Assembly: GCF_030013205.1 (NCBI RefSeq)
Contig: NZ_CP122648.1
DNA from: Escherichia coli
GTDB lineage: Bacteria; Pseudomonadota; Gammaproteobacteria; Enterobacterales; Enterobacteriaceae
Length of the DNA stretch: 64,000 nt
Reading direction: 5' to 3' (one strand)
In this document: piece by piece, positions 8,462-56,242 of the stretch
Numbering within the stretch: the first letter of the stretch is position 1
How the letters are laid out: each line of letters starts with the position of its first letter
Notes under the pieces: generated by a model
The model's database searches: none
Seen by the model: only the letters and a program-made list of their open reading frames with translations
Told to the model about the DNA's origin: nothing
Position numbers and translations under genes: made by a program

Positions 8462-8639
8462 TATGTTGCTCCTCCAGACGGGTACAAATAAAAATCGAAC
8501 CAAGCATACCCGTTTTTATACCCATTTTAATATGGGCTTCAGGCAAATTTAACGAGAGATAACGAGACAATGGAAGAGGTTTAACTCATTGAAAATCAAT
8601 GGGTAATGGTTTTTTCTGAGAGATTGCGAGAAGTTGCGA

Positions 8640-8714
8640 TGGTGTCCCCTGCAGGAATCGAACCTGCAATTAGCCCTTAGGAGGGGCTCGTTATATCCAT
8701 TTAACTAAGAGGAC
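8640..8714 (-). tRNA. argW: tRNA-Arg (anticodon CCU)
   Basis: reverse complement reads GTCCTCTTAGTTAAATGGATATAACGAGCCCCTCCTAAGGGCTAATTGCAGGTTCGATTCCTGCAGGGGACACCA with T-arm GGTTCGATTCC and CCA end. Confidence 0.9.
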
Positions 8715-37196: not shown

Positions 37197-37396
37197 TACG
37201 TATCCTTATACCTGAAATCTTCGCAAGTATGCCTGGCCGCGAGATTATGGCACACTTGTCCGGTTAACTCTCGTCTCATACAGGTAACACAAACGTGAAA
37301 ATCCTTGTTGATGAAAAAAATGATGATTTAATTTATTGATATAAAAGGATTTATATCAGCACGTGTCCACGTAGTGACCACATTTTCGAGTTACAG

Positions 37397-37432
37397 ATAA
37401 CACAAAGCCCGTTTTCACGGGCTTTGTGTTAT
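37397..37432. terminator. 13-bp perfect inverted repeat with 6-nt loop (AACACAAAGCCCG/CGGGCTTTGTGTT) at the core/insert junction; terminator-like without strong U tract
   Basis: seen in sequence between 297-aa ORF stop and flk upstream region. Confidence 0.4.
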
Positions 37433-37462
37433 CTGGATTGTGGCTAAGCCACATGATTTATG

Positions 37463-38356
37463 CTATTTCCAGTTACAAGCAGCTTGAAGTGGTTTTAGCG
37501 CGTTTGACAGGCCGTTTAAATTGAAAGTTGCACTTACAGGGCTCTCATTATAAGGAGTTATTTTTGTATACATTTTGTTTGAGTTGGCTAGTTTTCGGAT
37601 GAAATCAATGTCATTACCTTTATAAAAAACAGCCTTTGTATCTGTAGATACTAGCCAGTTTCGCTCAACTGCTTTCTGTTTATCAAGACGATAAAGCATG
37701 CTGGTTTGTTCAAGGCCTAAATATACATCCCAACTAAGAAATACTTCGGTTTTCTTTTCTCGGCAAGCTATAAACAGAGTGGGAGTAACCGCTTCTCCAA
37801 ATGGAGTTCTGATATAATCATCACTTTCTAACGATAAAATTACATTTTTCGAATCATCAATTGGCGATGTAGTAATGGATGTGTGCCATTTTCCTACATC
37901 TGTGGCTTTCTCTAATTTTGATTCAGCTTGAACAGCTTTATCCTGTGGGAATAGTTTATCGTAGCAGTTTAGTCTGGCTTCTTTATCATTTTCTGCTCGG
38001 CATTTAGATATCTCAGAAAGATTTGGTTGCTGAGCCTCTGTTGTTACTGGCTTTTCCGTTTTAGATTTTGAGTTTACAGATGGAGTAAATGTTGGAGAAA
38101 AAAAACGATCATAACAAGATAAACGTCTGTCATCATCTTTCTCATCAGGGCATTGATCTCTGCTTTCGAATTTTTCAGCAACTTTCGTTCGAGTCGGTTG
38201 TATTGACTTATCGTAACAAGAAAGTCTGTCTTTATTATTTTCTATTGCTCGGCACTGGAGTACTGCATTGAAGTTATTATGTTCAGTTGCTGCGTGAACA
38301 GGCAGTACACTAATTGATATAAATGATGCACCTATAGAAAAAATTATATTTTTCAT
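37463..38356 (-). CDS. secreted protein with three tandem Cys-containing repeats (RLSCYDK-type) and a C-terminal domain; function unknown
   Basis: 297 aa; signal peptide MKNIIFSIGASFISISVLPVHA; AT-rich; not in the remembered K-12 flk neighbourhood. Confidence 0.6.
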   Translation of the reverse strand: MKNIIFSIGASFISISVLPVHAATEHNNFNAVLQCRAIENNKDRLSCYDKSIQPTRTKVAEKFESRDQCPDEKDDDRRLSCYDRFFSPTFTPSVNSKSKTEKPVTTEAQQPNLSEISKCRAENDKEARLNCYDKLFPQDKAVQAESKLEKATDVGKWHTSITTSPIDDSKNVILSLESDDYIRTPFGEAVTPTLFIACREKKTEVFLSWDVYLGLEQTSMLYRLDKQKAVERNWLVSTDTKAVFYKGNDIDFIRKLANSNKMYTKITPYNESPVSATFNLNGLSNALKPLQAACNWK

Positions 38357-38360
38357 TTTG

Positions 38361-38702
38361 TTATCCTTTTGGTTTAGTAAGAAATACTAAAATTCCGATA
38401 ATGATATCGCCAATAACCCATAAACTTCCAATGGTAATTAAACCTAAGCCTGTACCAATAACTGCACCGGCTTTTTCGGCATCGGATGTAGCATTATTTA
38501 TTATTTCACTAGTGCCTCCCAGTCCAACTAAAAGCGTATAGATCATAAAAATATTAAATAATATAAATATCCACTTGATGAGCTTTCCAAAAAATGAACG
38601 CTTAAGTTTTTTTATTTGTTTACCGCAAGCAGGGCAATACAATGCTGAATCGCTCACCTCTTTCTGGCATTCAGGACATTTGATTAATGCCATGTAATCC
38701 AC
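38361..38702 (-). CDS. zinc-ribbon membrane protein (CPECQ...CPACG then two TM helices), GTG start
   Basis: 113 aa; starts 5 nt after upstream ORF. Confidence 0.55.
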   Translation of the reverse strand: MDYMALIKCPECQKEVSDSALYCPACGKQIKKLKRSFFGKLIKWIFILFNIFMIYTLLVGLGGTSEIINNATSDAEKAGAVIGTGLGLITIGSLWVIGDIIIGILVFLTKPKG

Positions 38703-38954
38703 CTCCTTTGGATCAATACGAGTTGATATTTGTTACAAAACATTTTGATTTTATCAGATTTTTTTTTATTGATAAGTGTCAATTGATTAGCTGGTATAGA
38801 GTGAGACATATAGAAGGGCAGATCTGTATCAGTAGTGATGCAAAAATCCCACAGTTTCATGGAATTTTTGCATTTAGAGCCGTGAGATAGGGTGCCTTAT
38901 CGACCTTACCCTGGCAACCGATTGACGGGGGATTACTCCCCCGTCGCGGTTTCC

Positions 38955-39095
38955 TTACTGCTTACACTGTAAGAACGCCGCAAACTCCGCTCCCCAGAAA
39001 CTCATCCGTATTTCGCACAGCGAACCGTGCAACATCCAGATGATGAGGATTACCGTCACGCAGAACGTGATGGCTGTAAGCGATTTTTGCGACAT
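38955..39095 (-). CDS. Hok/Gef-family type I toxin-like peptide, 46 aa (not in ORF track)
   Basis: hand translation MSQKSLTAITFCVTVILIIWMLHGSLCEIRMSFWGAEFAAFLQCKQ; AAGGAG 8 nt upstream; N-terminal TM helix plus SLCE and AAFL motifs as in HokA. Confidence 0.5.
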   Translation of the reverse strand: MSQKSLTAITFCVTVILIIWMLHGSLCEIRMSFWGAEFAAFLQCKQ

Positions 39096-39285
39096 AGCAC
39101 TTGCTCCTTTTCCGGAGAGGCGCTAACCTTTCACTTGCTTAGGGTAGACGGTTAGGGCCTCGGTTAAACAAAAGTGTTTTCCGGGGCCTTTCCACATCTG
39201 GCCTTCGGGTATTCCCTCCGACCATCAGCCGAAAGGCACCCGCGCGTAATCTATCGCTTTTTTGTTACTCCGGCAATTCTGCTTG

Positions 39286-39546
39286 TTAATTCTGAGGTAA
39301 AGGCAAACTCATCTGATTGTTTCCCCTGTGTGAAGCTGGTAGCTCATGCCACGGGATACCTTCTGAAGAGTGAACGCCGGAGGCGTGTTTCGATGTGAAT
39401 TTATGGAAAGCTTCCAGTGTTGAGAAGCATACGCCGCATTCCAGATTGTTACACTGGTAATACTTTTGCCGCACGGTGTTTGAATCATTTTCCGGACGAC
39501 TTGTGCGGATACGGGCAGATGCGCCACAAAGCGGACAACGGAACAT
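39286..39546 (-). CDS. ogr: Ogr/Delta-family zinc-finger late-gene activator
   Basis: N-terminus MFRCPLCGASARIRTSR...YYQCNNLECGVCF matches the Ogr Cys4 motif. Confidence 0.85.
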   Translation of the reverse strand: MFRCPLCGASARIRTSRPENDSNTVRQKYYQCNNLECGVCFSTLEAFHKFTSKHASGVHSSEGIPWHELPASHRGNNQMSLPLPQN

Positions 39547-39737: not shown

Positions 39738-40760
39738 ATGGGAAGAGATATAACGCTGTACCCTAAAAAAGCAACTAGAAACGAACTTAAAAATTACCTT
39801 GAAAATTTAGGTTTTAAAAGGTGTAAACATTTGTGGGAATGGCCCCAAGGAACGTTGAATTACTCTTGGTTTGATGATACGGACTTCAAATCTACAGATG
39901 GAGTTTCGGCTGATATATATCCTGTTTCAAATGACGAATTACACATATCTGGTAATAAATGGGCATTGCATGTGCGTAATTTATATAGCGCTAGTTGGCA
40001 TGATGTAAAAATGCTTAATGATGTTCTAAAAGGCGCAAGGAGTCTTTTTGGTGGAACACTTATAGGTGATTATGGGAAAAATAGGTACGCTCCTCTATGG
40101 AAGGATTCTAGTAGTCCGATCAGTCGTGGCATTTCTTCAATATTTAATCATGTCCATCATGAGATTTCCGCTGTTAAACATGCCTTACCTGAACCTTCTA
40201 TTAAATTAAACCTACCGGAAGATGGCGGCTTATCCGAATACTTTGATTACATGCAATGTATGGATCCCAGTAGAGTTATATATAATGGATTAGTACCTTT
40301 TGCGGTTGCTATGTTTGAATACTTTTTCTCTAGAGCTTTTCAAATACTTATAAAGTACGATCCTTTCGCAATAGCAAAAAGAACATCGTATAAGCAAAAA
40401 GTTGATTTTGATATTCTGCTTGAGATAGAGAAAGGAAATATTTCAATAGAAAGTGTTATTGCAAGAAATTACACTTTTCAAAACTTAACCCACCTAAACA
40501 AAGCATATAAAGAGTGGCTGGATATAGATGTGAGAGCGATTCTTTATAAGAAAAAAAGAATTGGAAAATCAGTTGATTTTCTTGAGAATCGAATTTCTGA
40601 AATCATACAATATAGACATGGGATAGTTCATCACTTTGAGTTGGATAGGACCTTAAATCGGGATGGATATATTCATATATTAGATGCGCTAGAAAAAAGC
40701 ATAATTGAATTTATCCATTACATAGAAGGCAAATACAAATTTAAATTAAATGCGTATTAA
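39738..40760 (+). CDS. hypothetical protein, 340 aa, strongly AT-rich accessory gene between ogr and D; no recognisable domain
   Basis: ORF track; opposite strand to flanking late genes; own AT-rich upstream region with direct repeats; hairpin terminator after stop. Confidence 0.6.
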   Translation: MGRDITLYPKKATRNELKNYLENLGFKRCKHLWEWPQGTLNYSWFDDTDFKSTDGVSADIYPVSNDELHISGNKWALHVRNLYSASWHDVKMLNDVLKGARSLFGGTLIGDYGKNRYAPLWKDSSSPISRGISSIFNHVHHEISAVKHALPEPSIKLNLPEDGGLSEYFDYMQCMDPSRVIYNGLVPFAVAMFEYFFSRAFQILIKYDPFAIAKRTSYKQKVDFDILLEIEKGNISIESVIARNYTFQNLTHLNKAYKEWLDIDVRAILYKKKRIGKSVDFLENRISEIIQYRHGIVHHFELDRTLNRDGYIHILDALEKSIIEFIHYIEGKYKFKLNAY

Positions 40761-47238: not shown

Positions 47239-47733
47239 ATGGCCATGATGATGATCTACGGCATGTTTGTTTTTGAGCTGCGCACGCTGCCGCATCAGCA
47301 GTTACAGCAAAACAAAAGCTGGCGGCATGTGAAAAATGAACGCGTTAACCGTTCAGCAAGCTGGCAGTATATCGGTGCAGGTGATGATCGCATCGTTCTT
47401 TCTGGTGTGCTTTATCCTGAAATTACAGGTGGCGAAGTGTCGCTGTCGCTGCTGACCACGCAGGCGTATACAGGACGCCCCTGGCCTCTTATTGATGGCG
47501 TCGGGCAGATTTACGGCATGTATGTCCTGACCGAAACGAATACGACCCGTTCCGAGTTTGATCGCTACGGTAAGGCGAAAAAGATAGAATTTTCACTGAC
47601 CCTTGAACGCTGTGATGAGGATTTGCGGGAGCGCCTGCAATCCTCATCGTTCAGCGATATGCTGTCCGGCTTCAAAGATAAAGTGACATCATCCCTTAAC
47701 AGCGCGGCCAGTTCAGTTAAAGGGCTGTTCTGA
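47239..47733 (+). CDS. U: P2 gpU-like tail protein
   Basis: 164 aa; N-terminus and WQYIGAGDDRIVLSGVLYPEITGG match remembered P2 U. Confidence 0.85.
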   Translation: MAMMMIYGMFVFELRTLPHQQLQQNKSWRHVKNERVNRSASWQYIGAGDDRIVLSGVLYPEITGGEVSLSLLTTQAYTGRPWPLIDGVGQIYGMYVLTETNTTRSEFDRYGKAKKIEFSLTLERCDEDLRERLQSSSFSDMLSGFKDKVTSSLNSAASSVKGLF

Positions 47734-47903
47734 TTTAATGCTGGCCACTCATACCCTCATACCTGGTAATAAGTGGCCAGTCTTAACACTCACCATTTGA
47801 TTGCACCAGTGTTAACGATTTGTTACTGGACATCAGGCACGCTGGATAGCCAGTAGAAACATACCATTAAAATTATTACAATAATTGGTCACATGATTAT
47901 CTT

Positions 47904-48467
47904 ATGCTGAATAATAGAGATATGAATATTAATGAACTTAAAGATTGTATTCACTATGAAGTAATCGGTAGCGAGCGTCCTTTCTCCTGGCGAAAGGCAA
48001 TTGTTCGCGCAATAAAACATAGAAGAGTTCGTTATTTATTTTGGTGGCGCATAGCCAAATACCTTTTTGATAAAGGCGGATACTGTCGGAAGATTGCGGG
48101 GAAAATAGAACGTTTCATTCTTGATAAATATAATGTAACAGTCCCTTTAACTGTAAATATAGGGAAAGGCTTTGATATTTCTTATCTCAACAGTGTTGTT
48201 ATCGGTCACAAAGTAACAATCGGTGAAAATTGTTCAATAAAACCAGGGGTAACTATTGGGCTGCGTGGTGATTTTAATGATATGGATATTGTTATAGGAC
48301 ATAATGTGACCATTGGTTGTAATGCCACCATTCTTGGTGGCAAAGTGCGTATAGGAAACAATGTCACAATAGGTGCTCATGCATTGGTATTGCATGATAT
48401 TCCAGATGATTCAACATTCATCACTAAATTTCAGTCTGAAGTTATCTGCTCGTCCTCCCGCACATAA
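47904..48467 (+). CDS. hexapeptide-repeat acyl/acetyltransferase; AT-rich accessory gene, possible surface-polysaccharide modification
   Basis: 187 aa with repeated [LIV]GxxxxIG hexapeptide motifs; 3' end overlaps tfa by 37 nt convergently. Confidence 0.7.
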
Positions 48468-49048
48468 CCCTGATTCATCAGCTCTGGCCATACGATATCC
48501 GGAGCTGTACTGGTGTCAATTCTACTCACTAATACTCTGTATTTTCTCCAGGAATCCAGTTGTGAATTTTCCTCGTTTGTTGCTATTTCAAGATTAACTG
48601 CATCCTGCAGAATTGCGATGTTATCTGTTGCTTCCTGGATCAACCTTGCCTTTTTCTCTTCCGCTTCCCGTATCCGAAACAGTTTTTCTGCTTCCTCATC
48701 CTTCACCCAGGATACGCCGTCCCACTTCTGATACTCCCCTGCTGGCGACAACCAGGTGACATTCTCTGGTAGCGGTCCGGGTTCAGAAATAAACAACGCG
48801 TCCCCCGATGCCACGTCATAGACCGTTTTACCACGATGGTCTTCAACAATATTCCACGATTCATTTTCACTGTTAAAAACTGCCACAAAGCCAGCAGGAA
48901 TTTCCGGTGGGGCGATATCTGTAGAATTGGCTGGCAGCCCTGTATGAGGTGGAATATATGCGTCACCTTCACCAATAAACTCATTAGTTCCGGCCAGCAG
49001 GTTATAAATTTTTACAGTACGTGATTGTTCACTCATTCTGAATGCCAT
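48431..49048 (-). CDS. G: tail fibre assembly protein (lambda Tfa / P2 gpG type)
   Basis: 205 aa; N-terminus [34 protein letters not shown] matches remembered lambda Tfa. Confidence 0.9.
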
Positions 49049-49400
49049 TATGCAAGCCTCACAATATAATTAAATGCGATGTTTTTAACGGTGTTTTCCG
49101 CGTTACCAGCAGCGTTAACGGTGATGGTGTGTCCATGTGAACCAATCGCAACAGAGTGCGTATGAGCGCCAATAGCTGATTGAGTGTGACGCCATACGCC
49201 CCACGGACCATCAGTGCCATTCCACTTATTGGCGAGTTTACGCATGTATACATTGCCGTCTCTCGTGATAAAACGTTGCGTGCCTGCAAAATTGCCAGCT
49301 GCAAAAACCTCAAGCACACCGACAGCATTATCTTCCGGGAAATTTTTCTCCAGTGTTGCGTTGGTGGATGTTGCTTTAGACCAGATGCCAGTGCATCAGC
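49048..49400 (-). pseudogene. H: C-terminal fragment (about 117 codons) of tail fibre protein (gpH/Stf type), 5'-truncated
   Basis: frame open from stop near 49400 to ...[19 protein letters not shown]; no start codon or N-terminal domain. Confidence 0.75.
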
Positions 49401-50033
49401 GTTCGCATACTTACCCGCGTGCGCCACGGTGTTGTCCATGTTACGGGAGGTCAGCGTCACGTCATTCATAACGCGTTCGCTGGCGTCGGTTCTGATGTGC
49501 TCCAGCCACCCCACGTTAACGTCCTGAAGCAACTTGTTGGTGCTGAAGTTGGACTCATCCGCGTGAGACGTGCCGTTGAAACCGATCATGATTCGGTCAA
49601 GCGCCACCTGTCGGGCAATCTGTGCGCTGATGCGGGACTGAAAATCGCTGTGTGCCGACCAGGCATCAAGCTGCGGATACGAAATAAACGTGTCGTAGTT
49701 CACCTGTTCGCACTGGTATTTGCGGTTTTTCAGATCAACCACGTTATTCGGGTTACGGCGTTTTGTTCCGTCATAACTGGTATTCGTGCGCGCAATCGGT
49801 CCTGTGGTATCCAGGAGGATTTTTTCGCCCTTCTGGTCGGTCACGCCGATCACGTTAATTCTTTTTGTAAATTCGGTGCTTTCCTTTGAGGCGTTTTCAA
49901 AACGCTGCTGTACCGAGGGTTCCACGGTAAATCGCGATACCAGTGCGGAAACCGGGATATTGTTAAGCGACGCCTGCTGCGCCATATAGCAACCCAGCTT
50001 GTTGCGGGTAATATCTGACATCACCAGATTCAT
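49400..50033 (-). pseudogene. N: major capsid protein gpN, N-terminal about 210 codons only, fused out of frame to tail-fibre fragment
   Basis: homology to P2 N (FTVEPSV, NKYxCEQ, IMxGFNG) ends near HAGKYANADALASG; track ORF 49059..50033 continues in a non-homologous frame. Confidence 0.75.
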
Positions 50034-50056
50034 AAAAAATTTGCTCCTTTGTCTTA

Positions 50057-50893
50057 TCAGAAGTCAGCCAACTGGTCGGAGGCTGCGCCTGTTGCGGTGA
50101 ACCGGTTCTGCGGATCGCCGTCCTGCGTGCGCAGTTTTTCCTTCAGTTCTGCCAGCTCTGTGGTCAGTAAAGTGATTTTCTGGCTGTCCTGCTGATGGCG
50201 GGTTTCCAGCACATTAAAACGGTCGATAATGTCGGCCTGTGACGTTGCGACACCTTCCACCGCTTCCTGAATACGGGAGAAACTGGCGTCATCCGCTTTG
50301 CGGCCACGGCCAATAATCCCCATAACGCGGTTAAACCACTGGGTGCCTTCCTCCTGACGTTGTTCGGTGAGTTCGATAAGTTCTGACTCCATAGCGGCGG
50401 TAAACATCGCCACGTCTCCCTGCTGACAGTTGAATGTCATCAGTTGCATACGTTGTTGTGCCGCAAAGGCCAGACGTTCCGTGCCCAGGCTGGCGGGGGT
50501 GTCGGTCATTGCCAGCCCGCGCAGGTAAGGGCCTCCCGTGATGGTTGACTGTGGTTCCAGCTCAATACTGGAGTAAATTTTTTTACCATCGTTAAGCAGG
50601 GACATCATGCGAGCGGTCGGCTCAATTTCGGCATACAGTGCCGTGCGACCTGCCAGCGGGCCATCGGTTATGTCTTCGGTGCTCAACCCCACAACATCGC
50701 CCATAGCGGAAAACTCGCTACCGGGGAGTGGTGACAGGATGTGCTCAATATTCACACGTGCACCATAAACGGACGGGTTATAACTGGTGGCGGCAGCTTT
50801 CAGCATGTCGCCGTTGATTTCGCGCCCGTCTGCCGTTACACCGGAGACAGCCACGCGAAACTTTTTGCGGGATGTCTTTTTTTCATTAGCCAT
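50057..50893 (-). CDS. O: P2 gpO-like capsid scaffolding protein/protease
   Basis: start chosen at MANEKK with GAGGGG RBS; track ORF extends to 50926. Confidence 0.85.
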   Translation of the reverse strand: MANEKKTSRKKFRVAVSGVTADGREINGDMLKAAATSYNPSVYGARVNIEHILSPLPGSEFSAMGDVVGLSTEDITDGPLAGRTALYAEIEPTARMMSLLNDGKKIYSSIELEPQSTITGGPYLRGLAMTDTPASLGTERLAFAAQQRMQLMTFNCQQGDVAMFTAAMESELIELTEQRQEEGTQWFNRVMGIIGRGRKADDASFSRIQEAVEGVATSQADIIDRFNVLETRHQQDSQKITLLTTELAELKEKLRTQDGDPQNRFTATGAASDQLADF

Positions 50894-51047
50894 AGTTTTT
50901 GCCCCTCTGACTGGTTCTTCAGTCATGATGGCAAAGCGTAACAGGCTGATACAAAGGGCTTTTGTTGTAAGAAAACAGTCAGAACAGGGGGTTAAGGAGA
51001 ACGGTTTCGCGCGCGGGTAATCTTCCTGTAATTACTCAGGGGGAGCA

Positions 51048-52799
51048 ATGATTCAGGACGCTTTTGTGCGCCAGCGTGCGCGACAACTTTACTGGCAGGG
51101 TTATCCGCCCGCAGAAATATCACGTCTGATGGGAATAAACCCGAACACGATTTATGCGTGGAAAAAACGCGACCAGTGGGATGAAACGCCACCCGTGCAG
51201 CGTGTCACGCAGTCCATCGATGCGCGCCTCATCCAGCTTACTGAAAAACAGAATAAAACAGGCGGTGACTTTAAGGAAATAGACCTGCTGACCCGGCAGC
51301 TTAAAAAACTGCATGATGGCCAGCCGGATGTGACGGCCACAGGAAAGAAAGGCCGGGCGAAAAAACTCAAAAATCATTTCACGCCGGAACAGATTGCCGC
51401 ACTGCGGGAAAAAATCATCAGCAGGCTGGAGTGGCATCAGCGGGGCTGGTTTGACTCCCTGACCCTTTGCAGGGAAGCCGGGATACGTAACAGGATGATC
51501 CTGAAATCCCGACAGATTGGGGCGACCTGGTATTTTGCACAGGAAGCACTGCTGATGGCGCTGCGTGACGATGTGGCGCAACCTTACCAGCGTAACCAGA
51601 TTTTTTTGTCTGCGTCGCGTCGTCAGGCGTTCCAGTTTAAAAGCATTATTCAGAAGGCCGCGGCTGAAGTTGATGTGGAGCTGAAAGGGGGCGATAAAAT
51701 CATCCTCTCCAACGGCGCAGAGCTGCATTTTCTCGGCACTTCTGCTGCGTCGGCACAGTCCTATACGGGCAATTTTTATTTTGATGAATTCTTCTGGGTC
51801 AGTCGCTTTGCTGAACTGCGCAAGGTGGCTGGCGCTATGGCAACCCTCAGCGGACTGCGGCGCACCTACTTCTCCACGCCATCCACCGAAACGCACGAGG
51901 CATACGCCTACTGGAACGGCGACCGCTGGAACGAGAAAAAGGCCACGCATAAACGCCAGCGTTTTTCTGTGGACTGGAAAACGCTGCATAACGGGCTTAT
52001 CTGCCCTGACCGGACGTGGCGGCAAATTGTCACGCTGGAAGATGTGGTTAATCACGGCTGGAAACACACCGATATTGACGAAATCCGTGATGAAAACACC
52101 GAAGACGAGTTCCTCAATCTCTATATGTGTGAGTTTGTTCGCGAAGGGGAATCGGCATTTAACCTGAATATCCTGATTGGCTGCGGTGTTGACGGATACG
52201 ACGACTGGAAAGACTGGAAACCTTTTGCTCCCCGCCCGATGGGGAATCGTCCGGTATGGATTGGGTATGACGCAAACGGCAGCAGTGGCAACGGCGACAG
52301 CGGCGCTGTGTCCGTGGTGGTTCCTCCGGCTGTTCCTGGTGGCCGTTTTCGAACGGTGGAGACGCGACGCGTTCAGGGGCTGGAGTTTGAAGAACAGGCC
52401 AGAGTCATTGAAGAGTTCACGTATCGCTACAACGTGGAACACATCGGCATTGATGTGACGGGCGGGAACGGGGAGGCTGTTTATCAGATAGTGAAACGGT
52501 TTTTCCCTGCTGCTATTCCGTACACCTTCACGCTGTCATCAAAACGGTCGCTGGTACTGAAAATGCTGCAAATAATGCGTGCCGGGCGGTGGGAATACGA
52601 TCGCGCCGAACGCGAGCTGGTCGCGGCCTTTAACGCCGTGCGTAAGGTGAAAACACCGGGCGGCTTTATCACTTACGAAACGGACCGCGCGAGGGGGATC
52701 AGCCACGGCGACCTTGCGTGGGCAACCATGCTTGCTGTCATTAACGAACCGATTGGCGGCGAAGGAGAAAACGAGCGTTTCACGGTTATGGAGTTCTGA
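51048..52799 (+). CDS. P: P2 gpP-like terminase large (ATPase) subunit
   Basis: 583 aa; divergent from O as in P2. Confidence 0.85.
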   Translation: MIQDAFVRQRARQLYWQGYPPAEISRLMGINPNTIYAWKKRDQWDETPPVQRVTQSIDARLIQLTEKQNKTGGDFKEIDLLTRQLKKLHDGQPDVTATGKKGRAKKLKNHFTPEQIAALREKIISRLEWHQRGWFDSLTLCREAGIRNRMILKSRQIGATWYFAQEALLMALRDDVAQPYQRNQIFLSASRRQAFQFKSIIQKAAAEVDVELKGGDKIILSNGAELHFLGTSAASAQSYTGNFYFDEFFWVSRFAELRKVAGAMATLSGLRRTYFSTPSTETHEAYAYWNGDRWNEKKATHKRQRFSVDWKTLHNGLICPDRTWRQIVTLEDVVNHGWKHTDIDEIRDENTEDEFLNLYMCEFVREGESAFNLNILIGCGVDGYDDWKDWKPFAPRPMGNRPVWIGYDANGSSGNGDSGAVSVVVPPAVPGGRFRTVETRRVQGLEFEEQARVIEEFTYRYNVEHIGIDVTGGNGEAVYQIVKRFFPAAIPYTFTLSSKRSLVLKMLQIMRAGRWEYDRAERELVAAFNAVRKVKTPGGFITYETDRARGISHGDLAWATMLAVINEPIGGEGENERFTVMEF

Positions 52800-54966: not shown

Positions 54967-55278
54967 TTACTCAGGAAATAACGCCCGGATATTCCCAGCC
55001 ATCTGGCTGGTTATCTTAGCCACTGGTGCAGACTGTGCTTCAAACTTTTTTGAGCTGATTTGTGTCACAGGTAACATCTCATCATCAGCCCATGCGGCCA
55101 GTCGGTAAGCCTCTGCCGGATTCGTCTTCAGAAGTGCCAGCCCGGCCAGAAAAGCCACGCGTTGGCCGCTTTTGCGGGCTTCTGGTGTAAGGCTGTCCAG
55201 CCAGGCGCATGCTTCTCCTTCGTTCTTGACGGCAGCTGGCTTCAGATAGAAACTTATCCGTCTGGTTGGTGTTGTCAT
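54967..55278 (-). CDS. ParR-like DNA-binding adaptor, about 104 aa from MTTPTRRISFYLK
   Basis: resembles remembered plasmid R1 ParR N-terminus (RRTIAFKL...LDSIPQGERSRLNRAALTAGLALY vs RRISFYLK...LDSLTPEARKSGQRVAFLAGLALL); AAGGAG inside parM 3' end. Confidence 0.6.
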   Translation of the reverse strand: MTTPTRRISFYLKPAAVKNEGEACAWLDSLTPEARKSGQRVAFLAGLALLKTNPAEAYRLAAWADDEMLPVTQISSKKFEAQSAPVAKITSQMAGNIRALFPE

Positions 55279-55282
55279 TGGT

Positions 55283-56242
55283 TTACTCCTTGTCCATTGC
55301 GTACAGCCCATTAACCAGAGCAAACTGTGGCACCCCGTCCGCGATGAAAGTCGCATTAACTCCGCAGGCTTCGCGGATAGCGGGTGCCACAATCTCCGCC
55401 CCGCCACCGACAACCATCACCCGCCCGTAACCCGAAAAACCCGCCAGCGCGCGGATCACGCGTTGTTTCAGTGTTTCTTCCTTTTCACGAATAACCGCCA
55501 TCAGGCTGGCGTAATGCGCGTCATTGTGGATGTGCTGGCGCAGCCAGGCTTCATCATGGCGATGTTCGATAATGGTATTGGCGATGTGGTGACTGGTACG
55601 CATACCGTTAGTGGCCATCACCGACAGTACGGCATCGGCCATCAGGGAAACGCCTACGTGTGGATCGCAAAACACCTGGCTGATACCTGCCAGTTGTCCC
55701 TGAACCTTTGCCACATCCAGCGTGGTTCCGCCTAAATCCACAATCAGCAGGGATTCAAACGGACTCATGTCAGCCAGTGCTTTAAAGCCAGCCGGAATGG
55801 ATTCAGGCATAACCCGTACGTTACGGATAGTGAATGCTTCGCCGTTCTGGTACTCCACCGGGCGCATGACGTTCGCTTTTTTGCGGTTGATGTTGGCCAT
55901 GTCCGGCTGTGCGTTTGTGTCGAAATATTCGCTCAGTGGCAGGGTGACAACCACATCCACTTCCTGTGGTGTGATGCCTGATTTGACCAGCGCGTGATGA
56001 ATGGCAATGACATTCACATCGCTGTACTGGTATTGCGTGTCGGTCGTCTGGACAAAGCGATCGCTGACCGGATCAAAACCATAGCGCACGCCATCAAGCA
56101 TGTAGTTCGCGGGCTGCGTGCCACCGAACGGCGCAGACCATTCCGACTTGAAGCTGTTCGGGCTGATGGCGTTGCGGCGTTCGCCGTTCTCAGTCCATGC
56201 CAGCTTGATGTTGGTGGAGCCGTCATCGATACAAATTTTCAT
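55283..56242 (-). CDS. ParM/StbA-like actin-family ATPase
   Basis: 319 aa; N-terminal MKICIDDGSTNIKLAW and LIVDLGGTTLD phosphate-binding motifs as in plasmid R1 ParM. Confidence 0.75.
   Translation of the reverse strand: MKICIDDGSTNIKLAWTENGERRNAISPNSFKSEWSAPFGGTQPANYMLDGVRYGFDPVSDRFVQTTDTQYQYSDVNVIAIHHALVKSGITPQEVDVVVTLPLSEYFDTNAQPDMANINRKKANVMRPVEYQNGEAFTIRNVRVMPESIPAGFKALADMSPFESLLIVDLGGTTLDVAKVQGQLAGISQVFCDPHVGVSLMADAVLSVMATNGMRTSHHIANTIIEHRHDEAWLRQHIHNDAHYASLMAVIREKEETLKQRVIRALAGFSGYGRVMVVGGGAEIVAPAIREACGVNATFIADGVPQFALVNGLYAMDKE

Follow-up and report, generated by a model that had tools for sequence, protein, structure and literature searches.

Downstream of flk, where E. coli K-12 carries pdxB, the 64,000-nucleotide stretch of E. 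coli DNA analysed here (the window) instead contains two AT-rich genes on the minus strand. The questions raised by this locus are to which element the gene pair belongs and what its products, a 297-aa and a 110-aa protein, do for the cell that carries them. The initial annotation placed the pair between flk and a neighbouring prophage, suggested an effector/immunity or envelope-modifying arrangement, and assigned no function.

The break in the flk-pdxB gene order noticed in that annotation is real. Identity to other E. coli genomes ends at 37317, within the opening codons of pdxB. Of 5,426 E. coli genomes, 5,425 have a pdxB region that matches bases 37197-37317, and everything to the right of 37317 is phage DNA. 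The 17-bp att sequence of PhiSM, ATCCTTGTTGATGAAAA, is found at 37301-37317, and this Citrobacter rodentium phage integrates within pdxB at its 5' end (PMC6456863). Because host identity ends at 37317, at the PhiSM att core, the gene pair is assigned to the prophage as an att-proximal operon: rather than separating flk from the prophage, it is inside the latter, adjoining attP.

Comparison with related elements is consistent with this assignment. The 20 nt of the attL core recur without change at attR of an identical prophage in strain ETEC1748, ahead of an intact pdxB, to which attR brings a phage-supplied TTG start; PhiSM has the same att core in the pdxB 5' end and likewise supplies the TTG. 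In the Escherichia phage P88_4B11 (Xuanwuvirus), attP carries these 20 nt with one mismatch, and the cos-permuted genome reads integrase, attP, VasI-like gene, zinc-ribbon gene. In Klebsiella phage 3LV2017 the pair lies just within the annotated attR. PhiSM ORF1 ('T6SS VasI family protein') with its adjacent gene, and gp37/gp36 of P88_4B11, are the same pair at 96.7% and 91.9% nucleotide identity, respectively, and in both phages it adjoins attP. Here, too, insertion is at the 17-bp att site in the 5' end of pdxB, with the cargo inside the att-delimited element; the locus differs from these phages essentially only in its host strain and in the deleted, defective state of the prophage. A 'phage' record, 500465-2, is 99.9% identical and was dropped as proof of packaging: it includes flk, yfcJ, fabB and mnmC and is therefore a mis-delimited prophage. 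The comparison is based instead on P88_4B11, PhiSM and 3LV2017.

The pair is thus almost certainly an att-proximal accessory operon of a PhiSM/P88-type prophage of the P2 family (Peduoviridae) in pdxB. Family membership was judged from the RefSeq annotation of the identical ETEC1748 region, the open reading frames of the window and an NCBIfam match to Ogr. The genes of a P2-like layout are present: Ogr; gpD; tail sheath and tube; tape measure; the gpA replication nickase; and Cox, C and integrase. Ogr, whose product RefSeq names an 'ogr/Delta-like zinc finger' protein, marks the region as the right arm of the prophage. The hok-like reading frame reported beside the pair holds up (38955-39095; NCBIfam HokA, E 6e-9; also phrog_251), and the sok-like RNA at 39082-39241 scores 51.9 bits, below the Rfam gathering score of 59. 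In a PADLOC search, neither hok nor a 340-aa ORF was matched. The features are collected in Table 1.

Table 1. Positions in the window of the operon, its protein features and the adjoining prophage and host elements
Feature	Position	Strand	Basis or remark
pdxB 5' remnant, truncated	37295..37339	+	GTG AAA ATC CTT GTT GAT GAA, then phage DNA to a stop
attL core AAAATCCTTGTTGATGAAAA, host/prophage junction	37298..37317		contains the published 17-bp PhiSM att sequence
Hairpin, 19-bp perfect stem, 4-nt loop	37394..37435		directly downstream of the VasI-like gene
297-aa VasI/TagO-like protein, predicted exported (WP_000789404.1)	37463..38356 (including stop codon)	-	Pfam VasI, RefSeq
C-terminal beta-rich domain, residues 150-297, modelled VasI/IalB-like fold	37466..37909	-	C198 and C294 invariant
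Cys motif 3, C119-x11-RLNC131YD	37958..38002	-	copy kept in every homologue
Cys motif 2, C69-x11-RLSC81YD	38108..38152	-	weak Pfam VasI N-terminal match, residues 68-103
Cys motif 1, C35-x11-RLSC47YD	38210..38254	-	AF2: helical hairpin, helices 29-35 and 41-51
Sec signal peptide, predicted, residues 1-22, cleavage after VHA	38291..38356	-	read from sequence
110-aa protein, predicted inner-membrane (WP_001173927.1)	38361..38693	-	N-terminal Cys4 zinc ribbon and DrpB-like two-helix hairpin
Membrane hairpin, helices 34-66 and 71-105	38379..38594	-	AF2, hydrophobic pattern
Zinc ribbon C6-x2-C9 ... C20-x2-C23, predicted cytoplasmic	38613..38678	-	Pfam, AF2
Sigma-70-like promoter candidate for the operon	38748..38775	-	TTATCA, 16-nt spacer, TG-n-TAAAAT
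hok-like toxin gene and sok-like antisense RNA (context)	38955..39241	-	next module of the prophage arm
Ogr, P2-type late activator (context)	39286..39546	-	NCBIfam PRK09678, E 1.6e-11

The description of the pair as AT-rich, horizontally acquired and tightly coupled is confirmed. GC content is 0.33-0.38 over 37350-38850, as compared to 0.49-0.62 for the host genes on the left side, and 4 nt separate the stop of the small reading frame (38361, minus strand) from the ATG of the 297-aa reading frame. Along the minus strand, the order is: promoter-like site; 110-aa gene; the 4-nt gap; 297-aa gene; hairpin; and attL. The promoter candidate is a consensus match only, of a kind no commoner in this region than expected by chance. 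The hairpin had been described as a 13-bp perfect stem, and the perfect pairing stands, but its arms (37394-37412 and 37417-37435) are each 19 nt long and 100% complementary. It probably terminates the operon, belongs to the attP arm, or both, and P88_4B11 carries a similar hairpin in the same place. A simple terminator scan left it uncalled because no run of T follows the stem.

The 297-aa protein has a signal-like N-terminus and, as first described, three RLxCYD repeats. The N-terminal sequence, MKNIIFSIGASFISISVLPVHA, followed by AT, is that of a putative Sec signal peptide, with cleavage predicted after VHA; AF2 pLDDT is below 50 over residues 1-28. The repeats are three C-x11-RLxCYD motifs, CRAIENNKDRLSCYD, CPDEKDDDRRLSCYD and CRAENDKEARLNCYD, pictured as three helical hairpins. 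Homologues have one, two or three copies, and in the third motif C119, R128, L129, C131 and D133 are invariant across 47 sequences. Pfam VasI (PF11319) matches significantly over the full length of the model (E 1.7e-16, 60.8 bits; residues 118-296, model positions 1-184 of 184), and two extra weak matches involve the first 26-36 positions of the model, the one at Cys motif 1 covering residues 34-59. RefSeq calls the protein TagO. The NCBIfam equivalog for the protein from type VI secretion systems (T6SS), TIGR03360, nonetheless scores 75.9 bits against a cut-off of 124.2. The protein also matches phrog_1848 (E 2e-37), a family without an assigned function. Its modelled fold is a beta-sandwich like that of IalB/VasI. 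When PDB chains were searched with the profile of the family, no match was meaningful (best E 0.42), and a fold search of AFDB50 returned only entries named 'VasI/TagO', 'prophage exported protein' or, wrongly, 'DNA primase', with no functional lead among them.

Two known protein groups resemble the 297-aa protein. With VasI/TagO (PF11319, TIGR03360; V. cholerae VCA0118) it shares the signal peptide, the C...RLxCYD motif, a beta-rich domain and a predicted periplasmic location. In contrast to the T6SS proteins, it falls below the equivalog cut-off, has the motif in triplicate, is phage-borne at att without T6SS neighbours, and usually has as its coupled partner a two-helix membrane protein with a zinc ribbon. 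The second group comprises IalB (PF06776, PDB 3dtd) and RgsG, which are likewise envelope or periplasmic proteins. Here the identity is 14-18%, the Pfam IalB match is marginal (E 9e-4), and no Cys-motif repeats are seen in IalB. As the mechanism of IalB has not been described, this likeness predicts no activity.

For the partner, the Cys4 motif (CPEC...CPAC) and two long predicted helices of the initial description remain, but the length of 113 aa does not. The most likely start on sequence grounds is the ATG at 38693, which is preceded by a GGAGG ribosome-binding site; the GTG at 38702 falls inside that site, and the resulting 110 aa is the length common to RefSeq and all homologues. Pfam Zn_Ribbon_1 matches with E 2.6e-7, and none of the four cysteines (C6, C9, C20 and C23) varies among 32 sequences. 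The AF2 model (pLDDT 81) has a beta ribbon at residues 1-27, ahead of the two helices, and the C-terminus is a conserved T-[RK]-P-K. The protein belongs to phrog_6586 (E 8e-43), also without an assigned function.

The closest named relative is DrpB (YedR), a septal-ring protein of E. coli that activates Rcs in multicopy. The predicted topology is of the DrpB type: a small protein with two membrane helices, a short periplasmic loop and both ends in the cytoplasm. Conserved in both are G-K-x3-W-x-F, at helix 1, and T-R-P-[KR], which follows helix 2. An hhalign comparison of the 110-aa family with K-12 DrpB covers both helices (probability 68.6%, E 4.6e-5) and aligns the invariant T106 with DrpB T89; the NCBIfam DrpB model (NF038392) gives E 1.5e-4 and 22 bits, short of its 50-bit cut-off. 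Unlike DrpB, the 110-aa protein has an added N-terminal Cys4 zinc ribbon, and its family is phage-borne and extends well past the narrow enterobacterial range reported for DrpB. Septal localisation, ftsEX suppression and Rcs activation are properties known only for E. coli DrpB.

Both genes are under purifying selection (dN/dS 0.05-0.34 for the pair; 0.09-0.34 for the 297-aa gene and 0.05-0.34 for the 110-aa gene). The pair is accessory, occurring in 236 of 5,426 complete E. coli genomes, and so is not a widespread core locus with a known function. Among 80 IMG/VR loci, the zinc-ribbon gene lies directly upstream of the VasI-like gene on the same strand in 58, and this synteny still holds where the VasI-like proteins are as low as 47-57% in identity; the other 22 have a VasI-like gene without this partner. 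A lone VasI-like gene is also found in a Photobacterium chromosome, and the zinc-ribbon/DrpB-like gene stands without it in a Haemophilus chromosome and a Tn3-type element. As each gene is also found without the other, the pair is not obligate. In other P2-like prophages, the VasI-like gene is beside a different small protein, which combines a zinc ribbon with a TM2-domain hairpin. A fusion of zinc ribbon and VasI-like protein, P0052, was considered as a 'Rosetta stone' and given little weight; a deletion is more likely, since the junction is at the VasI-like signal peptide and the fusion is one sequence on one contig.

The position of the VasI-like gene in phage genomes is recurrent. At least five IMG/VR loci, as well as the P2-like prophages L100/L101, have the order C repressor, VasI-like gene, integrase. 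In Brucella phage BiPBO1 and Klebsiella phage ST11-VIM1phi8.1 the gene comes immediately downstream of the repressor, and in Labrenzia phage vB_LagS-V1 it is within the immunity region. In the sampled neighbourhoods of this locus and its relatives there are no T6SS genes, but prophage, integrase or repressor genes instead. The VasI/IalB superfamily as a whole comprises 5,936 representatives at 50% identity. Environmental, plant-associated and marine bacteria, as well as phages of these, are among the carriers of the VasI-like protein.

Taken in aggregate, these data suggest that the operon probably provides an envelope function expressed in the lysogen, a form of lysogenic conversion. Expression in lysogeny is proposed because VasI-like genes sit beside repressor, integrase or att. 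The 297-aa protein would be exported by Sec and form four disulfides in the periplasm, and the 110-aa protein would be an inner-membrane protein whose zinc ribbon faces the cytoplasm. The earlier suggestion of an envelope-acting arrangement is reasonable in this respect, one product being exported and the other a small membrane protein, both by prediction. In such a system, the periplasmic protein could do the blocking or sensing, with the membrane protein as its anchor or transducer.

The likeliest role would be to shield the lysogen from infecting phages or other injection devices. Genes for superinfection exclusion are typically placed in a comparable way: rexAB of lambda follows cI, and the lactococcal sie2009 and the streptococcal ltp each lie between repressor and int. 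Exclusion modules have their genes beside repressor, integrase or att, with expression in the lysogen, and the proteins concerned (T4 Imm/Sp, lactococcal Sie2009, streptococcal Ltp and lambda RexAB) are small membrane and/or exported phage proteins that protect the cell. VasI-like genes are found in positions of these kinds. This is a likeness of position and architecture only; no sequence or fold relationship of the pair to these modules was found. Neither protein matched any defence model of PADLOC-DB 2.0 at E up to 0.1. Superinfection exclusion specifically is named as a possible but doubtful role, and the overall explanation, a prophage operon with a lysogen-protective envelope role, is advanced tentatively, at somewhat less than an even chance. 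A narrower idea, in which the VasI-like protein blocks spikes of P2 or T6SS type, is weakened because VasI-like genes occur in phages that do not look P2-like (BiPBO1, vB_LagS-V1 and ST11-VIM1phi8.1).

Other readings take one of the two homologies more literally. If the name given to the 297-aa protein were correct, it would be a TagO/VasI accessory subunit supplied by the prophage to assist or tune a host T6SS. The full-length Pfam match is consistent with this, as are the TagO/VasI names of close relatives in RefSeq and UniProt and the placement of canonical vasI between vasH and tssA in Vibrio T6SS clusters. The shortfall against TIGR03360 points the other way, no T6SS gene stands beside the 297-aa gene or any sampled relative, every one of the nearest relatives is on a prophage or mobile element, and even canonical TagO is described as having no known function. 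To our knowledge, E. coli K-12 MG1655 has no T6SS, which also counts against such a subunit, as does the finding that PhiSM lysogenises this strain (PMC6456863). A T6SS role is improbable on this evidence. Alternatively, the DrpB-like protein may be the key player, acting on the divisome or switching on Rcs (capsule) with the VasI-like protein as periplasmic modulator, so that the lysogen surface is altered. In addition to the hhalign and NCBIfam matches, Pfam DrpB (PF28000) has weak precomputed matches on many homologues, T89 is the sole DrpB residue, among those tested, at which a change did away with Rcs activation, and RgsG of Sinorhizobium, which has an IalB domain, is a periplasmic protein of the growth zone and of division. 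The homology is nevertheless weak by the curated cut-off, DrpB itself lacks the zinc ribbon, and the VasI-like gene is often without this partner or has a TM2-domain partner instead, making this reading unlikely.

As a phage-borne IalB-like 'invasion' protein, the 297-aa protein would be a host-interaction (virulence) factor, and PhiSM ORF1 has indeed been classed as 'virulence' cargo, on blastp grounds only (PMC6456863). The low identity to IalB, its reported location at the inner membrane with no mechanism described, and the environmental, plant-associated and marine carriers all argue against this. The protein carries only a predicted Sec signal and therefore should stop in the producer's periplasm, with no predicted route beyond it. 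A virulence role is, in sum, very improbable. As the initial annotation allowed, the genes could in principle be an effector/immunity pair, in which a secreted effector or toxin is matched by a small immunity protein in the membrane, or the roles are exchanged. Tight coupling of the genes, predicted export of one product and membrane location of the other, and AT-rich mobile cargo fit such a pair. Neither protein has a toxin or enzyme domain in NCBIfam, Pfam, PADLOC or PHROGs, the modelled IalB/VasI-like beta-sandwich of the exported protein is a non-enzymatic fold, and each gene often stands alone, which an effector/immunity pair could not tolerate. The probability left to this arrangement is close to negligible.

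As it stands, the locus is an ordinary prophage accessory operon. The pair is already catalogued in RefSeq, Pfam and PHROGs and is published cargo of PhiSM, although the PhiSM paper lists only the VasI-like gene and names it from blastp (PMC6456863). That no function could be assigned agrees with the literature: publications on TagO/VasI function, PF11319, P2 hotspots and IalB gave no experimental function, and in those on TagO/VasI, PF11319 and IalB no member of the VasI/IalB superfamily with a known molecular activity was found. What the analysis does indicate is that the name 'type VI secretion', attached to thousands of prophage copies, is unsupported by score or gene context and can therefore mislead surveys of virulence and of T6SS.

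The VasI-like gene recurs beside att, integrase or repressor in unrelated temperate phages. Its coupling to a two-helix membrane protein with a zinc ribbon is also repeated, and two different families supply this partner. Together, recurrent position and coupling mark a testable candidate for a lysogen-protective envelope function in the VasI/IalB superfamily. A broader proposal, which we regard as speculative and rather unlikely, is that the prophage 'TagO/VasI' proteins are mis-named and, with their zinc-ribbon two-helix partners, form a widespread, unrecognised, lysogen-expressed envelope system of temperate phages for the periplasmic blocking or sensing of incoming phages or contractile injection devices. 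If true, this phage envelope system would hint at what the T6SS accessory protein VasI binds.

The VasI-like gene and its zinc-ribbon partner lie inside a P2-like prophage integrated at the start of pdxB. When 37197-38960 was compared by megablast with 5,426 complete E. coli genomes, the first 121 bases, covering the pdxB start region, matched in 5,425, while the remainder was carried by only 236 (4.3%). Read from the sequence, pdxB begins at 37295 with GTG AAA ATC CTT GTT GAT GAA and diverges past 37317. Comparison of flk neighbourhoods across E. coli genomes, as suggested in the initial annotation, sets the insert boundary at 37317, inside the pdxB start. Strain ETEC1748, which carries an identical prophage, is 100% identical across the query. 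Its other element end reads ...AAGGAGCCTTAGA TTG TCA GAG ACT GAA AAA GGG TTA AAA ATC CTT GTT GAT GAA AAT ATG CCT..., and intact pdxB is entered from that end, directly behind the phage integrase. A 20-nt core, AAAATCCTTGTTGATGAAAA, is common to both ends (here 37298-37317). The Citrobacter rodentium phage PhiSM has a 17-bp att site, ATCCTTGTTGATGAAAA, 6 bp inside pdxB; it provides a Shine-Dalgarno sequence and a TTG start, and its lysogens stay prototrophic (PMC6456863). As judged from sequence, the junction here corresponds exactly to this published situation.

Integration severs pdxB after its first codons (37295-37339), and attR lies outside the window (L007, a retrieved locus, 8606-8660). 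There the phage end supplies AAGGAG and a TTG start, giving a PdxB longer by seven residues (385 aa in ETEC1748), which matches the PhiSM publication (PMC6456863).

Phage gene order agrees with this placement. The stretch 37318-38960 is 96.7% identical to the deposited PhiSM genome. The cos-permuted genome of P88_4B11 runs Cox, C, integrase, attP, VasI-like gene, zinc-ribbon gene, further genes, hok, ogr and gpD, and Klebsiella phage 3LV2017 has a homologue (67% nucleotide identity) just inside its annotated attR. Together with the att core and the ETEC1748 attR, these orders place the gene pair within the prophage as its att-proximal operon, establishing both what the element is and where its boundaries lie. 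What had been described as cargo between flk and the prophage is thus no separate island. One RefSeq 'complete phage genome' (NC_049343.1, 'Escherichia phage 500465-2') was rejected as a packaged genome: it contains the host genes flk, yfcJ, fabB and mnmC as well as an IS transposase, and is a mis-delimited prophage.

G+C content is 33-38% over 37350-38850, against 49-62% in flk, yfcJ and farther left, which bears out the AT-rich character first noted for the region. The perfect hairpin reported there is present with longer arms than the 13 bp given, and profile matches confirm the hok-like neighbour. With the sok-like RNA, this ORF forms a type I toxin-antitoxin module in the prophage arm (38955-39241, -). 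Between the zinc-ribbon gene and hok (38703-38954) the prophage arm has a small, variable cargo hotspot. Nothing occupies it here. Strain CMZE046 has a RES-family NAD+ phosphorylase gene at this place, P88_4B11 has two unknown genes, and three IMG/VR loci have some 1.8 kb of additional DNA (compared loci: L002 13489-15244, L004 7362-9115 and L027-L029). The 340-aa ORF has no match in NCBIfam, PADLOC or PHROG; it has a weak Pfam HEPN_RiboL-PSP match (E 3.7e-4, residues 181-329), occurs in no more than 5 of the 80 related viral loci, and is a possible HEPN-type moron for abortive infection or defence. The ParM-type gene pair occupies the classical P2 old/tin hotspot.

Features of the att-proximal operon and neighbouring prophage modules
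Feature	Coordinates	Strand	Basis or remark
Perfect inverted repeat	37394-37435		19-nt arms, 4-nt loop
297-aa ORF (VasI-like)	37463-38356	-	ORF list
Hok-like ORF	38955-39095	-	NCBIfam and PHROG matches
sok-like antisense RNA	39082-39241	-	RF01794, 51.9 bits, below gathering score 59; E 5e-10
Ogr	39286-39546	-	NCBIfam match; beyond hok/sok
340-aa ORF	39738-40760	+	31-38% GC; lies between ogr and gpD
ParM-type plasmid segregation gene and small partition/stability gene	54967-56242	-	In prophage, portal to replication gene A

Domain composition is established for both proteins. The N-terminus of the 297-aa protein, MKNIIFSIGASFISISVLPVHA|AT, resembles a Sec signal peptide. The three RLSCYD-type repeats originally described are confirmed in the general form C-x11-RLxCYD (residues 35-49, 69-83 and 119-133). 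Pfam VasI (PF11319) matches across its whole model (E 1.7e-16), and the extra Cys motifs give two further, weak matches to the first 26-36 positions of that model. The number of motifs ranges from one to three among homologues (206-220, 247-250 or 294-298 aa); the last motif (C119, R128, L129, C131, D133) and C198/C294 show little or no variation. The AlphaFold2 model has pLDDT >90 for most of residues 150-297 and a short helical hairpin per motif, with low-confidence linkers between. The family profile retrieves 5,936 representatives at 50% identity, mostly of about 200 aa, and phrog_1848, which also matches, has no assigned function.

The partner ORF ends at 38361 (-), 4 nt upstream of the 297-aa ORF. 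A GGAGG ribosome-binding site lies 7 nt ahead of the ATG at 38693, where RefSeq and all homologues begin (MALIKCPEC...); the product is therefore 110 aa, not the 113 first given, while its ribbon and two helices stand. CPEC-x10-CPAC is followed by two long hydrophobic helices; the model shows a beta ribbon (1-27) and then a helical hairpin (34-66 and 71-105). Zinc-ribbon Pfam families match, as does phrog_6586, a family without known function. Similarity to DrpB is weak: NCBIfam DrpB scores 22 bits against a 50-bit cut-off (E 1.5e-4), hhalign with K-12 DrpB gives a probability of 68.6% (E 4.6e-5), and homologues have weak precomputed Pfam DrpB matches.

Scanning IMG/VR with the VasI-like alignment yielded 80 loci. 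In 58 the zinc-ribbon gene, next to ogr and gpD, directly precedes the VasI-like gene in the same orientation, and the VasI-like gene is usually the final gene of the predicted provirus. Among divergent loci the zinc-ribbon partner is better conserved (66-75% amino acid identity versus 47-63%). The pair is kept in synteny, and dN/dS values of 0.05-0.34 indicate purifying selection on both genes. Other arrangements exist. In four P2-like loci the VasI-like gene stands by itself, and at tamB/ytfP a further E. coli P2-like prophage pairs a two-motif VasI-like gene with a different small protein. Like the 110-aa protein, this has CxxC...CxxC followed by a membrane hairpin, but of another family, TM2-domain (PF05154). 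In other prophages this alternative neighbour of VasI-like genes has 98-100 aa and an N-terminal zinc ribbon (L008 7830-8126 (-) and L090 6848-7150 (-)). In another recurrent layout the VasI-like gene stands between C repressor and integrase (L081-L087, L089 and L100, with 11 nt to int in the last). Beyond P2, the VasI-like gene follows the repressor at a distance of 9 nt in Brucella phage BiPBO1 and of 128 nt in Klebsiella phage ST11-VIM1phi8.1, and is inside the immunity region of Labrenzia phage vB_LagS-V1; further relatives adjoin an S24 repressor-like or TIR-domain gene. Zn/DrpB-like proteins occur without the VasI-like gene on a Haemophilus chromosome and a Tn3-type element; in Photobacterium a VasI-like protein is found by itself.

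In a single metagenomic P2-like prophage (L018 6001-6732, P0052), a zinc ribbon is joined directly to a signal peptide and VasI-like domain, probably through deletion between the two genes rather than as a designed fusion. A prophage remnant, a fragment with 91.8% identity that comprises ogr, hok, the zinc-ribbon gene and a VasI-like gene split into two ORFs, is carried by large IncF plasmids: pCss165Kan (NC_022333.1, 145330-147346; L105) and a further 10 from E. coli, most of those listed being from human stool samples.

The prophage itself is defective. No phage record spans 47700-51100, around 49388 (ORF 49059-50033, -). Matches are to tail-fibre genes in the left half and to capsid, scaffold and terminase genes in the right; in the identical ETEC1748 prophage, the genes on either side are labelled partial in RefSeq. 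The baseplate, lysis and head-completion block has therefore been lost. The element measures about 27 kb versus 33-37 kb, yet the cargo operon is kept.

Several features suggest that the operon would be expressed in the lysogen: a promoter-like site of its own, moron-like AT-richness, location at the att end, and the occurrence of relatives in repressor-integrase operons. Combined with the predicted export, disulfide bonding and membrane topology of the two proteins, this points to a lysogenic-conversion function that would act at the envelope. Known exclusion genes occupy comparable positions: rexAB after cI, and sie2009 and ltp between repressor and int. Given such positions and the architecture of an exported protein with a small membrane protein, superinfection exclusion is the leading single candidate, offered tentatively.

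Other roles fit less well. The 297-aa protein is annotated as a T6SS accessory, but it scores 75.9 bits against the 124.2-bit cut-off of TIGR03360, the NCBIfam T6SS equivalog model, and T6SS genes are absent from all of these VasI-like neighbourhoods; a genuine T6SS role thus fails on both equivalog and context. DrpB-like action on the divisome or Rcs pathway would be an attractive parallel: T106, invariant in the 110-aa family, aligns with DrpB T89, the only tested residue at which mutation stopped overproduced DrpB from activating Rcs, though the homology is weak. Fold similarity is the one observation pointing to an IalB-like virulence role, and no mechanism is known for either IalB or RgsG. 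The initial annotation, largely correct apart from placing the genes outside the prophage, also raised an effector/immunity pair; this is unsupported, as a toxin domain is absent and the genes are not obligately paired.

The gene pair is already known: its products are annotated in RefSeq as 'type VI secretion system-associated protein TagO' and 'zinc ribbon domain-containing protein', TagO being described as without known function, and ORF1 of PhiSM is listed, on blastp grounds, as 'T6SS VasI family protein' (PMC6456863). The locus is essentially the same as the PhiSM/P88 cargo. A literature search found no paper on the pairing of VasI-like with Zn-ribbon/DrpB-like proteins, on the alternative Zn-ribbon/TM2 partner, or on the recurrent repressor-adjacent placement. 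This pattern of partners and repressor-adjacent placement around the gene pair represents a modest, testable lead.
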